From NCBI GenBank assembly GCA_965217775.1, contig CBDCJH010000002.1, forward strand, positions 2,304,001 through 2,368,000: 64,000 nt of DNA, read 5' to 3'. Shown here piece by piece: positions 52,826 through 57,699 of this stretch. The position numbers and the translations under genes are program-made. The stretch comes from Acidobacteriota bacterium (lineage in GTDB: Bacteria > Acidobacteriota > UBA6911 > RPQK01 > JAJDTT01). Below the pieces are notes generated by a model. That model was not told the DNA's origin, made no database searches, and saw only the letters and a program-made list of their open reading frames with translations. How positions within the stretch are numbered: the first letter of the stretch is position 1; each line of letters opens with the position of its first letter.

Positions 52826-54583
52826 TCAATCCCCCGACTTCGCCGGGGCGTCCGCTTCGACGCGCACCGTGACCACATCGGTGTCGTGGTACTGCCGGTG
52901 GCGCACCGAGCTGGCGTAGTGGCGGAGCAGCCGGAGCGAGAACTCCCGGTCGACGGATCGTCTCGCCCATTGACCCATGAGCGCCAGCCGGTCCTCGAGA
53001 TTCCCGTCCACGGCCGAGGCGATGAACTCCAACTCCACTCCCCGGCCGTCCCCCCGGACCAGGAGCAACAGGTGCCGGGCCTCTTCCTCCTCCGACGCCT
53101 CCTCATCCGGAATCAGGCTCAGGACCGATTCCTCCGCCGCGGCCCGGAGCCGTTCCGTCGACGCCTCGTTCCAACCCTTGTCTTCGGCGAACCTGCAGAC
53201 GAACCCGTCGATCTCCGGCAGCGACTCGACGCTGAGCATGGCCTTGACTCGCCGCCGCCGCGGCTTGGCCAGATCCAGAGCCACCGTCATCACGATCGCG
53301 GCCAATCCGCCGGCCGCCATTCCGTTCCCCAGGATGGTCGCCAACGTCCCGCCCATGTAGTCCGCAAAGATCTGCTGGTTCTGAAAACCGACCCCCAGCC
53401 AGAAGGACAGGCCGACCACCACGCTCTTGCGGCTGTCGAGGCCGTCCTGTGCCACGATCCTCATACCCAGCACGAACAGGATGGCCATCAGGACCAGGAT
53501 GTAGGCCGCGACGACCGGGTCCGGAATCGCCAGGATCGCCGCCGTCACTTTGGGGAGGAAGGCGAAAGAGAAGAACAGGATTCCGATGCAGACCCCGACG
53601 GAGCGCGCGGCGACGCCGGTGAGTTCGGTGACCGCGACGCTGGAGGAGTAGGTCGTATTGGGCACGGTCCCCATCAGACCCGACAGGAGGTTGCCCACGC
53701 CGTCGGCTCCAACCGCTCCCTGTACCGCGCGAAAGTCCGTCGCCCGCGGCCTCCGCCAGGAGATCTGCTGGATCCCGATGGCATCGCCGACGGTCTCGAT
53801 GGCGCCCACTACGGTCACCAGAACGAAGACCGGGAGCAAGGTCCAGAACGAGGCACCGAACGTCAGGTCGAGGCCAGGCCAGCCGCTTGTGGGTATTCCG
53901 AACCAAGGAGCGTCGGCAACTCGGGCGACGTCGTAGAGGCCGTAAAAAGAGGCGACGACACACCCCGCGGTAACGCCCAGAACGGGCGCCCAGAGCCGCA
54001 AGCTCCCCTTGGCGAAGAGGGCGAGACCCGCCGTAAAGACGAGCGTCGCCGCCGCGCTGGTCGGAGCACCAGAGGCCGCCCCTTCCGCCGCGTTGGCCAC
54101 CAGGTTGAAGGCGATGGGCATGATGGTCACCGAGATCAACATGATCACGGTCCCCGCCACCAAGGGGGTGATCACCCTCCGGAGCAACGACAGATGGGAC
54201 GCCAGAACGAATTGGAACAGGGACGAGATGACGACCAGCGTCGCCAGGAGTCCGGGTCCCCCTTCCGTCAGCGCCGTCACCGACACGGCGATAAAGACGC
54301 CGGACGTTCCCATCAGGAGGACGTAGCCGGAACCGAACCTTCCGACGCGGACGGCTTGGAGGATGGTGGACAAGCCGCAGACGCAGAGCGCCGCGAACAC
54401 CGCCCAGGTCATGTAGATCTCCTCGCCGCCGGCCGCGCGGACGATGATCGCCGGGGTCAGGACGATTCCGCCGATGCTGAGCAGGACAAGCTGAAATCCG
54501 AGTCCCAGGGAGAGCAGGTTCGGCGGCCTCTCGTTGGGTTCGTAACGAATTTCTTTCTGAAGGGCTGGAGCGGATGTTTTCAT
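52826..54583 (-). CDS. NCS2 (xanthine/uracil) permease with C-terminal HATPase-like domain
   Basis: ILQAVRVGRFGSG, IETVGD, PNTTYSS NCS2 signature; ~140 aa soluble tail. Confidence 0.9.
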   Translation of the reverse strand: MKTSAPALQKEIRYEPNERPPNLLSLGLGFQLVLLSIGGIVLTPAIIVRAAGGEEIYMTWAVFAALCVCGLSTILQAVRVGRFGSGYVLLMGTSGVFIAVSVTALTEGGPGLLATLVVISSLFQFVLASHLSLLRRVITPLVAGTVIMLISVTIMPIAFNLVANAAEGAASGAPTSAAATLVFTAGLALFAKGSLRLWAPVLGVTAGCVVASFYGLYDVARVADAPWFGIPTSGWPGLDLTFGASFWTLLPVFVLVTVVGAIETVGDAIGIQQISWRRPRATDFRAVQGAVGADGVGNLLSGLMGTVPNTTYSSSVAVTELTGVAARSVGVCIGILFFSFAFLPKVTAAILAIPDPVVAAYILVLMAILFVLGMRIVAQDGLDSRKSVVVGLSFWLGVGFQNQQIFADYMGGTLATILGNGMAAGGLAAIVMTVALDLAKPRRRRVKAMLSVESLPEIDGFVCRFAEDKGWNEASTERLRAAAEESVLSLIPDEEASEEEEARHLLLLVRGDGRGVELEFIASAVDGNLEDRLALMGQWARRSVDREFSLRLLRHYASSVRHRQYHDTDVVTVRVEADAPAKSGD

Positions 54584-54591
54584 AATTCAAT

Positions 54592-55856
54592 GGGGCTTAT
54601 ATACCTAAGTGCCCTTGGCATACAGTTCTGGCACCACGCTTTCCCCAACGAGATACGTTCCGGTACCCAGGGCAAGAACCCCAGCCCTGAGAATGTTCAG
54701 GGCGGCATTGTGGTCCCTGTCCATTCTAAGTCCGCAGGCCCTGCACCGGAAGGTTTCGCTCCGCCCTGGATCGTGGCGGGCGCCGCACCGGTGGCAGTCC
54801 TGCGATGTAAATGCGGGATTCACTTCTACGAACTTCCGACCGGCCCATTCTGCCTTGTACTGGATTTGATTCCGCAGAAGCCCCCAGGATTGCGTCAGTA
54901 TTTCTCGATTCAGCCCCTTCTTCTTCGAGCCCTTCGTTACCATCCCTTGGATGTTCAGCTTCTCCACAGCGATCAGACCGTGCTCACGAATGATCCTGCT
55001 GGAGAGACGATGGCAGGCATTACGGTTTCGGACCGATTCCCGGTGACGGAGCCGAGATAGCTGTACGATCCGCTTCCGTCTGGTCTTGGAAATCTTCTTG
55101 CACCTGGAGACCTTTCTCTGCTGCTTTCGGATCCCCGCCCAGTCCCGTCTATTCCGTTCGATCCTCTCACCCGTGGACAGCACCGCTCGCTTGCGGACTC
55201 CCAGGTCGATCCCTACCGAAGACTCGCATTTCGGTAGCGGCGGCTTCTCCACCTCGTACGTCAGGTCCACATACACCCGGTTCGGCTTGCGGACAATCCG
55301 CAACGCCTTCAACGGGCATCCGTCCGGCAACAGCCGGGACGGAAATATCCGGATCGTCGGGAAGCCCTTGGGCCGGATGGCGTAGCCCCGAGCGCGCTTC
55401 TTCACCATGGTCGCTTTGGGGTCGACGACGGCTTCTCCCCCGCCTTGCAGCGACGATGGTCTCCATCCGCCTCGCAATGGGCCGGTCAACCCCTTCATCT
55501 GATCGAGGATACCCCGGCTTCTCCCCCGCCTTGCAGCGACGGAAGAACGCCTTGAAGGCCCGGTCCAACCGCATCAACATCCCACGCTCCGCCTTGACCG
55601 CCACCGACCCGAGCCCCTCCGGATCGTCCTTCCTCTGGGAGGCTGATCGTACAGGGTCACGCCGCGTTGCTCGGATTCCCAGGCCGTCCTGCGTTCCTCC
55701 AGTGCAGCCAGCCGATTCAGGATGGACCTCACCCCGTCCAACCGCCGGATTCCACCCTTGGACAGCTTGGCTCGGCACTGGATAGTTGCGTGGACTTTCA
55801 TGGTAGGAATTGTAACCTATCAGCCTGAATTCTCGGCACTTACGTATATAATTCCC
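54592..55856 (-). mobile_element. Non-autonomous tnpB-carrying element with 22 bp TIRs and 8 bp TSD (IS1595-like ends)
   Basis: GGGGCTTATATACCTAAGTGCC vs GGGAATTATATACGTAAGTGCC (19/22); AATTCAAT at 54584-91 and 55857-64. Confidence 0.85.
54605..55801 (-). pseudogene. tnpB: TnpB RNA-guided endonuclease, frameshifted
   Basis: AFKAFFRRCKAGEKPGYPR, VGIDLG, IAVEKL, TSQDCHRCG..CRACG, DRDHNAA; split over three frames. Confidence 0.92.
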
Positions 55857-55947
55857 AATTCAATCCCTGTTTGTCACAACCTGGCGTTGCCGGTTCGTTT
55901 CCGAAAAGGGAGCCGGCCGAGTCCTTGGCGGCCCGTCAATCTGCGAG

Positions 55948-57699
55948 TCATGCCGCCGTGTCCGCGTCCACACGGATCGTGACCACATCGGTGTCGTGAT
56001 ACTGCCGGTGAGTCACTGACGTGGCGTAGTGGCCCAGCAGCCGGAGCGAGAACTCGCGATCGCTCGACTGTTTCGCCCACTGTCCCAACAGCGCCAGCCA
56101 ATCCTTGAGATTATCCTCCCCGGCCGCGGCGATGAACTCCAACTCCGCTTTCCGGCCATCACCTCCCAACGACAGAACCAGGTTCCTCGCACCTTCCGGC
56201 TCCGAACCCGGCTCGTCCGGAACCAGGCTCAAGATGGCTTCCTCCGTCGCCGCCCGAAGCCGTTCCGTCGAAGTCGCGTTCCATCGCTTCTGTTCGGCGA
56301 ACCGCCGAACGAACTCGTCGATCTCCGGCAACGACTCCACTCCCAGCTTGGTCTTGATTTTCCCTCGCCCTGGCTTGGACAGTTCCAGGGCGACGGCCAT
56401 CACGATCGCGGCCAATCCACCGGCTGCGATCCCGTTTTCCAGGATCGACGCCACCGCGTCTCCCAGATGATCCGAGAAGATCTGCCGGTTCTGGAAACCG
56501 ACCCCCAACCAGAACGCGACGCCGACCACGATGCTCTTGCGGCTGTCCAGCCCGTCCCGGACCACGATCCGAGTTCCCACCACGAACAGGAGCGAGATGA
56601 GGACGATGATGTAGCCTGCAACCACCGAATTGGGAATCGCCAGGATCACCGCCGTCGCTTTGGGGAAAAACGAGAAGACGATGATCAGGATCCCGACGCA
56701 GACCCCCACGTTGCGGGCGGCCACACCCGTGAGCGCGGCCACCGAGATGCTGGAGGAGTAGGTCGTATTGGGCAACGTTCCCACCAGACCGGAGAGAAGG
56801 TTGGCCAAGCCGCTTGCCCCAATGGTGCCCTGCACCGATCGAAAATCGGTCGCCCGCGGCTGCCGCCAGGAAACCTGCTGGATGCTGATGGAGCCGCCGA
56901 TGGTCCTCACGGTATCGATGGCCACCACGAGTACGAAAACCGGCAGCAACGCCCAAAATAACGAGCCGAAACTCAGGTCGAATCCAGGCCAGCCGCTTGC
57001 GGACAGCCCGAACCAAGGGGCGGCAGCAACTCGGGCGGTGTCGTAGATCCCATAGAACCCCGCTACGGTGCAACCCGCGATCACGCCCAGAACCGGCCCC
57101 CAGAGCCGCCATGCGCCCGTCGCGAAGAGCGCAAGACCCGCCATCGAGACGAGAGTCACTCCGAAGCTGGCGGGGGCGGCAGCCGGCGGGGCCCCTGCCG
57201 GCGGCTTGGCCAACATGTTGAAGGCGATGGGCATGATCGTGACCGCCACCAGCATGATGACCGTCCCCGCCACCAACGGTGTGATCACCCGGCGAAGCAG
57301 CACCAGACGCGATCCCAACAGGAACTGGAACAGGGACGAGACCACGATCAAGGTGGCCAACAGAGCGGGCCACCCTCCCTCCGTCAAAGCCGTGATCGAC
57401 ACGGCCACGAAGGTGCCGGAGGTCCCCATCAGGAGAATGTAGCCCGCTCCCATCCTTCCGATACGAATCGACTGGAGAATGGTGATCAGACCGCAGACGC
57501 AGAGTCCGGCGAACACGGCTCAGGAGAGGTAGATCTCACCGGTGCCTGCGGCTTCGATGATGATCTTCGGGATCAGCACGATTCCGCTGATATTCAGTAT
57601 CACGAGCTGAAGGGCGAGTCCCAAGGAGAGCAGGTGCGGAGGCTTCTCGGGAGGTTCGTAGCGAACGCCCGTCCGAGGGGGCGGTCCGGAGCGTTTCAT
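55948..57699 (-). pseudogene. Second NCS2-HATPase-like permease with an in-frame TGA at 57520-57522
   Basis: Paralog of 52826; IYLS*AVF aligns with IYMTWAVF; frame open on both sides. Confidence 0.85.

Follow-up and report, generated by a model that had tools for sequence, protein, structure and literature searches.

The stretch of DNA analysed here (the window) comprises 64,000 nucleotides from the genome of an Acidobacteriota bacterium (GCA_965217775.1, contig CBDCJH010000002.1, positions 2,304,001 to 2,368,000). At positions 54592-55856 it carries a 1265-bp element whose sole gene, tnpB, lies on the minus strand. The 8-mer AATTCAAT flanks the element on both sides, at 54584-54591 and 55857-55864, and we read it as a target-site duplication (TSD). 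The element itself is bounded by terminal inverted repeats (TIRs) of 22 nt that agree at 19/22 positions (54592-54613, GGGGCTTATATACCTAAGTGCC, against 55835-55856, reverse complement GGGAATTATATACGTAAGTGCC). In the orientation of tnpB these arms are the right end (54592-54613, minus strand) and the left end (55835-55856, plus strand), respectively, and the TAG stop codon of tnpB (54605-54607) is located inside the right-end TIR, which is the left arm on the forward strand. The gene was recognised by Pfam models OrfB_IS605 (65 bits) and Cas12f1-like_TNB (90 bits). A first-pass annotation made from the letters alone had described this unit, its repeats, the flanking 8-mers and the position of the stop codon, and its coordinates proved to be exact. 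It had missed that the gene is broken: tnpB in the window (54605-55801, minus strand) is a frameshifted pseudogene whose reading frame is distributed over the pieces 55574-55801, 55167-55778 and 54605-55498, while intact paralogues encode 391 aa.

The window tnpB departs from the consensus of ten intact 391-aa copies by 18 substitutions, by deletions of 6 bp and 13 bp, the latter shifting the frame, and by insertions of 15, 3 and 22 bp. The pattern looks like a local rearrangement around 55433-55643. A perfect 27-nt direct repeat (55429-55455 and 55515-55541, 86 nt apart) is part of this rearrangement, which sets the window copy apart from every other copy. The TIRs and the 3' RNA module described below were retained, and the module (54592-54726) was identical to that of L002, an intact copy.

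The element is inserted between two members of a tandem pair of paralogous Xan_ur_permease-family transporter genes, both on the minus strand. The TSD copy on the 3' side of tnpB (ATTGAATT in tnpB orientation) directly abuts the ATG of the downstream gene (52826-54583, 585 aa). The copy on the 5' side is followed on the plus strand by CCCTG, and thus reads CAGGG/ATTGAATT in tnpB orientation, where the slash, here and below, marks a boundary of the TSD. The insertion has split the start codon of the downstream gene from an upstream Shine-Dalgarno-like AGGG, and its position between this ribosome-binding-like sequence and the ATG may silence the downstream permease paralogue. The upstream member of the pair, assigned by Pfam, lies at 55948-57516. 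Each of the two transporters has a C-terminal extension of approximately 150 aa without a Pfam match.

We looked for the corresponding site in genomes of the same genus (congeners). The orthologous tandem permease genes were present in seven congeners, and in 7/7 of these the site was empty and contained a single copy of the 8-mer. In the congener G006, AATTGAAT is followed directly by CCCTGTTTGTC, and in 6/7 congeners the regions matched by BLAST with the two flanks of the window element abutted or overlapped. The empty site that the first-pass annotation had proposed to seek in relatives was therefore found, and the alternative it had named, that both 8-mers were already present before tnpB arrived, was ruled out. 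A second observation concerns the copy at C2:418913-420162 of the host genome. In run X1, an RNA library available as assembled contigs, one contig joins L002:1494 to L002:2747 and skips 1252 nt, which is the 1244-bp element plus 8 nt, with eight letters at the joint that fit both sides, as in an empty allele; this contig shows that the empty allele exists and nothing beyond that. Filled and empty alleles in one sample suggest recent mobility.

The host genome (6.43 Mb in two contigs) contained 13 full-length copies of the tnpB element, along with fragments, and each copy read TSD/GGGG(A)TTATATAC ... GTATATAAGCCCC/TSD in tnpB orientation. The flanking 8-mers matched at 8/8 positions in 11 copies, at 7/8 in one and at 3/8 in one, and no two TSDs were alike. 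Since 8-mers matching at 7/8 or better flanked 12/13 copies and were all different, the layout is more than chance, in agreement with the earlier expectation of further tnpB copies carrying different 8-bp TSDs. An intact open reading frame (ORF) was present in 11/13 copies, ten of 391 aa and one, in a diverged copy (81% nucleotide identity), of 393 aa. The two broken copies were the one in the window and one interrupted by a 162-bp repeat. This repeat (G000:C2:4647530-4647691, within the copy at C2:4647305-4648722; G000 is the host genome) has inverted termini. Approximately 265 BLAST matches were obtained for it in the host genome, with 98-100% identity in many cases, making it a highly abundant element that resembles a miniature inverted-repeat transposable element (MITE).

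Pairwise nucleotide identity among the intact copies was 95.1-98.8%, and the ratio of nonsynonymous to synonymous substitution rates (dN/dS) was 0.32. Purifying selection acts on TnpB, which has kept its RuvC and zinc-finger motifs: the 391-aa copies carry GIDLG, AVEKL and DRDHNAA motifs and two CxxC pairs, representing the RuvC D-E-D triad and the zinc ribbon. The protein aligned to ISDra2 TnpB (8bf8/8exa) over residues 31-375 with an E-value of 3.5e-32. Related elements were detected in 6/8 congeners at 71-97% identity; they fell into several subfamilies, all with TIRs of the GGGG(A/C)TTATA type, and the subfamily of the window copy was found in G000, G006 and G007. A TSD of at least 7/8 was present at 10/11 congener loci scanned, and two more (L049 and L055) were read by eye; overall, 24/29 tnpB-element copies examined in the host genome and its congeners had such a TSD.

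A DNA search of 32 genomes outside the genus gave no match to the tnpB element. In a collection of 5.8 billion proteins, relatives of the protein down to 45-60% identity formed a continuum, some of them labelled as TnpB from Bryobacterales or Acidobacteriia metagenome-assembled genomes. Of the metagenome loci retrieved with an alignment of these proteins, those at least 44% identical to the query that included the C-terminus and a 3' flank had a TATA..CCCC end 6-27 nt past the match in 9/9 cases. A matching left TIR was seen in L132, L133, L134, L139 and L141, of which L141 had a perfect TSD, AAAAATAT, with a G before it and L139 a TSD matching at 7/8. The 23 metagenome loci examined at 39% identity or less were without a TATA..CCCC end, save for a weaker motif 62 nt away in L157/L158. 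The presence of these ends in relatives at 44% identity or more, and not at 39% or less, indicates that IS1595-type ends are a property of a clade of TnpB proteins and not of one genome. Among 300 sampled Acidobacteriota genomes, TnpBs from outside the genus were at most 37% identical and none of the 11 scanned had both TIRs and a TSD, a result that is uninformative on the origin of the clade.

The host genome gave nine matches to PF12762 (DDE_Tnp_IS1595), five of which are copies of a 1762-bp insertion sequence (IS). These five are 98-99.9% identical, carry the TIR GGGGATTATATACGAAAGTGCC at both ends and have an 8-bp TSD each, and the 334-aa ORF of the IS matched PF12762 (132 bits) and Zn_ribbon_IS1595. 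The start-side TIR of intact tnpB copies (GGGGATTATATACGTAAGTGCC) agreed with that of the IS at 21/22 positions (25/27 when extended), and the other TIR at 19/22, confirming the prediction that IS1595 transposases with the same ends would be present in this genome. At 16 loci of the 1762-bp IS, the TSD was 8/8 in 15/15 copies for which ends were found. The IS was also present in G006 (at least seven copies) and in G002 (at least five copies), and it co-occurred with the matching tnpB-element subfamily in G000 and G006. Unlike autonomous IS1595 elements, the tnpB element encodes no DDE transposase, tnpB being the only gene between its TIRs, and we therefore classed it as a non-autonomous derivative. 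The ISNwi1 group of IS1595, as defined in ISfinder, includes passenger-carrying derivatives and has the end consensus ggnnatTAT. Our sequences GGGGATTAT and GGGGCTTAT presumably fit this consensus, and the family further resembles the group in its GGGG(A/C)TTAT ends, its AT-rich 8-bp TSD and a PF12762 partner with an N-terminal zinc ribbon. On the evidence of near-identical ends, equal TSD length and co-residence, mobilisation of the tnpB element in trans by the 1762-bp IS appears well supported, and with it the earlier suggestion that a DDE transposon family recruited the nuclease.

Two further observations were made on the 1762-bp IS. The copy at G000:C2:445385-447146 has approximately 715 bp beyond the transposase gene, and a 110-aa ORF in that stretch (L021:909-1241, minus strand), weakly restriction-endonuclease-like by its matches to NA-iREase1 (31.9 bits, cut-off 27) and Mrr_cat (21.7 bits), may be a passenger gene. 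In G002, two copies lie nearly head to tail with their ends 9 bp apart (G002:C1:4122494-4126026; L082, L089).

The stop codon of tnpB was located 16-41 nt from the end of the element in every subfamily, and any scaffold of an omega RNA must therefore sit within the ORF. We aligned the last 215 nt of 18 elements from at least seven subfamilies. RNAalifold predicted a structure with 13 compensated pairs, to which we added a pseudoknot that joins GGGGTT, in the loop of hairpin 1, to the six terminal bases of the element (..AGCCCC). The resulting structure has 31 pairs in five helices. Its cells were paired at 97.8%, compared with 33-47% when partners were slid by 1-3 columns; 12 pairs were changed on both sides, compared with 1-2 in the slid controls, and 0/500 shuffles reached these values. 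In the G005 subfamily, hairpin 1 has GGCGGC paired with GCCGCC in place of CAGGGC paired with GCCCTG, a switch that entails amino-acid changes. The pseudoknot changes from GGGG../..CCCC to GGGAAT/ATTCCC in the G004/G008 subfamily (two sequences), in which the end of the TIR itself is altered. In the window the structured, omega-RNA-like region is about 135 nt long (54592-54726, minus strand) and shares its sequence with the end of the tnpB reading frame from the RuvC-III DRDHN motif onward, reaching to the element's final base; the last 6 nt of the right-end TIR are predicted to pair with the hairpin loop of the scaffold. The covariation fits a scaffold reaching as far as the final base of the TIR and a guide that would start at the TSD, as had been proposed from the window alone, and a pseudoknot using the tip of the TIR is supported, not proven, by the alignment.

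Folding of single sequences gave a z-score of -2.1 and a minimum free energy structure that differs from the covariation structure. The tnpB element matched no Rfam family at E<=1 apart from a sub-threshold match to COG3860 (16.8 bits, gathering threshold 42.5), and the 1762-bp IS matched nothing in Rfam. A sigma-70 promoter scan of an intact copy found no site on the tnpB strand, which is uninformative for this phylum. The tnpB element was also detected in sponge metatranscriptome runs. A contig of 1226 nt from run X2 extends from near the start of tnpB through the TIR to 50 nt beyond it in the flank, which is compatible with transcription through the right end but weak as support; uncovered parts of the element in these RNA-library contigs carry no meaning. 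At L002:1751-1788 and 1566-1637, peaks of depth and short contigs were considered as RNA ends and rejected, several subfamilies being mixed there.

We then compared the target sites. Orienting by tnpB the 22 insertions with a TSD of at least 7/8 (24 copies from the host genome and its congeners were examined) gave a signature on one side only. Directly upstream of the TSD on the side of the tnpB start, position -1 was G in 21/22, position -2 was G in 15/22 and position -3 a purine in 16/22. Within the TSD, position +1 was A in 22/22, position +2 was A or T in 22/22 and position +3 was A or T in 21/22. Adding L049 and L055, both G/A when read by eye, gave G at -1 in 23/24 and A at +1 in 24/24. 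The mirror motif T/C on the opposite side of the tnpB elements was at background level (5/22). The autonomous IS1595 copies (15 loci of the 1762-bp IS and five further variants) had G/A on 10/40 sides, and the genome-wide expectation was 27.7% of all WWWNNNWW sites. The binomial P for 23/24 was approximately 3e-12, and the Fisher test of 23/24 against 7/30 sides of the 1762-bp IS gave 4e-8. The signature is on the side whose TIR is nearly identical to the autonomous TIR.

The placement of this motif is of interest for a guide that would begin with the TSD. An empty site has RGG directly before the guide-matching sequence (TSD and flank). Once the site is occupied, the TIR end GCCCC takes that place, and the RGG at the other end of the element is followed by just eight matching bases. 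This is the arrangement expected of a target-adjacent motif (TAM), the sequence next to which a TnpB would cleave. Because the 8-bp TSD is variable, a TAM could include no more of it than the first bases, in combination with the RGG upstream. We consider it plausible, if still tentative, that the RGG/A signature is a TAM, by the placement of the motif and by analogy with Fanzors, the eukaryotic TnpB relatives. The biological consequence would be a retention or homing nuclease whose guide has its own TSD as its first 8 nt and whose TAM is (R)GG, maybe GGAW, such that only insertions at RGG/A persist or spread; this we regard as a possibility to be taken seriously, somewhat short of an even chance.

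Another reading accepts a functional TnpB and the architecture described above and denies that RGG/AWW is a TAM, attributing it to asymmetry of the transpososome, to selection on the expression of tnpB or of genes nearby, or to AT-rich 8-mers situated beside ribosome-binding sites. The TAM is predicted from the target logo, and the two TIRs differ at positions 5 and 14 and beyond position 22, which could make the transpososome asymmetric. Several insertions lie at translation starts, namely the window copy (CAGGG/ATTGAATT/ATG) and those at L047, L043 and L052, where the TSD either terminates in ATG or leads into it. Furthermore, A or T at +2, +3, +7 and +8 is shared with the autonomous IS and is therefore best ascribed to transposase preference. 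However, autonomous IS1595 insertions show G/A near the background expectation, and the side that bears the signature carries a TIR almost identical to theirs. The gene contexts of the 13 copies in the host genome were also mixed, comprising positions within ORFs, at stop codons and upstream of genes on the opposite strand, with only one to three copies just upstream of a start codon on the same strand, and T/C was not enriched on the opposite side. A Shine-Dalgarno or ribosome-binding-site origin of RGG/A was rejected as a general explanation on account of these contexts. Taken as a whole, this non-TAM explanation is a real contender that we hold to be rather less than evenly likely.

For the element itself, the explanation that we favour, with a probability of roughly 85%, is that it is a non-autonomous derivative of an IS1595-family transposon with ISNwi1-like ends, which carries as cargo a tnpB gene with an embedded omega-type scaffold and is mobilised in trans. 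Several points weigh against it. Every mechanistic step, from transposition to RNA ends, guide and cleavage, is inferred. A matching TSD was lacking at the copy C2:1186779-1188029 of the host genome and at the congener loci L037 and L042 (L042/L016). No autonomous IS with matching TIRs was found for the other tnpB-element subfamilies (clean ends at 5/22 loci, none matching). G005 has at least five tnpB elements, yet its sole PF12762 match is a broken gene with an internal stop. Covariation of the pseudoknot amounts to approximately one lineage (two sequences, a single event) and one single change, and its terminal G4/C4 are also under constraint from the transposase. The RNA-library data consist of assembled contigs, from which the strand, the ends and the RNA nature of the molecule cannot be read. 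Finally, the rearrangement of the window copy was seen in the assembly only and could be an assembly artefact.

Two of these points have a bearing of their own. The copies with mismatched flanking 8-mers (C2:1186779-1188029, L037 and L042/L016) have good TIRs, a state that recombination between copies, or a deletion next to the element, would be expected to leave, and no partner with swapped flanks was seen for them. The G005 elements at loci L038, L043, L047 and L050 belong to one subfamily and may be stranded without a mobiliser.

G002 has the IS and no tnpB element, and G005 has tnpB elements with only a broken PF12762 gene. This distribution could also be accommodated if the tnpB elements owe their IS1595 ends to descent, and are now moved by some other, perhaps lost, transposase or are immobile relics. 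The difference in identity among copies, 95-98.8% for the tnpB elements and 98-99.9% for the IS, allows for two bursts of different age. Agreement of the TIRs at 21/22 positions (25/27 extended) and the equal TSD length speak against this, as do the filled and empty alleles in one sample and the absence of the window insertion from 7/7 congeners, and we consider such a history improbable. Far less credible still is the simple insertion of an IS605- or IS1341-type tnpB into a pre-existing IS1595-derived MITE with unrelated TIRs, for which we found no supporting point: there is no room for IS605 ends or separate hairpin ends inside the TIRs (the first-pass annotation had named these as a finding that would count against it), since tnpB starts 53-66 nt and stops 16-41 nt from the ends, with the stop inside the TIR in the window subfamily; the RNA scaffold pairs and covaries with the terminal TIR bases; the same layout recurs in every diverged subfamily and in the TATA..CCCC ends of all nine metagenome loci; and no tnpB-less MITE that could have received the gene was found among the 34 genomic matches to the TIR core, which belonged to tnpB elements, to IS1595 copies or to three other sites, two of these lying in tnpB-element copies that are divergent or partial.

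For a trans-mobilised IS1595 derivative, the following sequence of events can be proposed. The transposase of the co-resident 1762-bp IS would cut and paste the tnpB element in trans. Transcription through tnpB would cross the right TIR into the flank and yield an omega RNA whose guide begins at the TSD, or a few bases inside it, and extends into the adjacent DNA. TnpB with this RNA would cut an unoccupied or precisely excised site, and this, as has been shown for the TnpB of IS605 elements, would promote recombinational restoration or homing of the element. The copy in the window is a decayed member of the family, whose insertion, confined to this lineage, parted a permease gene's start codon from the ribosome-binding-like sequence before it.

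How does this family relate to known systems? It resembles the IS1341 group of IS200/IS605 elements, exemplified by ISDra2 TnpB, in its protein family, in carrying tnpB only and in a scaffold that overlaps the 3' end of the ORF and reaches the element boundary. IS605-type elements, however, have no TIRs or TSDs; they possess subterminal hairpins, and their insertion point lies 3' of a fixed tetra- or pentanucleotide, which also acts as the TAM, whereas the family described here has 22-nt TIRs and variable 8-bp TSDs. It is similar to Fanzors in DDE transposons in that an RNA-guided nuclease is contained in an element with TIRs and a TSD, although the TSD of Fanzor elements is short and fixed (TA, TTAA), here it is 8 bp long and variable, and the element is prokaryotic. 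In passages of a 2026 review (PMC13565253), the 5' TSD of Fanzors is taken to belong to the TAM and the 3' TSD to lie in the RNA scaffold, and ISL2, IS630 and IS1031 are given as the families on the DDE side.

The first-pass annotation had assigned TnpB normally to IS605 and IS607 elements; a view that it travels only there is out of date. As described in the main text of Altae-Tran et al. (2023, PNAS; PMC10691335), six DDE-associated TnpB branches (DDE-1 to DDE-6) have inverted terminal repeats, and solo TnpBs, whose ends are almost the same as those of elements bearing a transposase, are regarded as "mobilized by transposases in trans". The family in the window shares with these branches the bounding TIRs, the position of the 3' end of tnpB near the transposon end and inferred trans mobilisation, and differs from them in its target-site asymmetry and predicted TSD-derived guides, which the main-text passages of that paper do not mention. 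IS630 is the sole family named in its main text, in which 'IS1595' occurs 0 times. Judged by titles and the openings of abstracts, we found no report on IS1595 with TnpB cargo, and the PNAS supplements may already hold the clade. The concept of TnpB in DDE elements with TIRs, including trans-mobilised solo copies, is thus already published, and the value of the present family lies in its IS1595 partner and its target-site signature and not in the concept. As far as we have seen, the IS1595 partner, the TIR tip in an RNA pseudoknot and the one-sided target motif are apparently unreported.

According to passages of the 2026 review, the benefit of TnpB to DDE transposons may be small and their association may be rare. 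The role of TnpB for transposons that excise by a DDE transposase and leave a TSD is a question that this family could test naturally, having many intact copies, an autonomous partner in the same genome, empty sites and a pseudoknot on the end to which the transposase binds. A one-sided motif that is absent from the partner IS predicts a TAM, and miniature editors would gain in targeting range from a 391-aa nuclease whose TAM may be G-rich. If the prediction is true, which can be tested directly, the family would provide evidence from natural populations that an OMEGA nuclease shapes the location of a DDE transposon.

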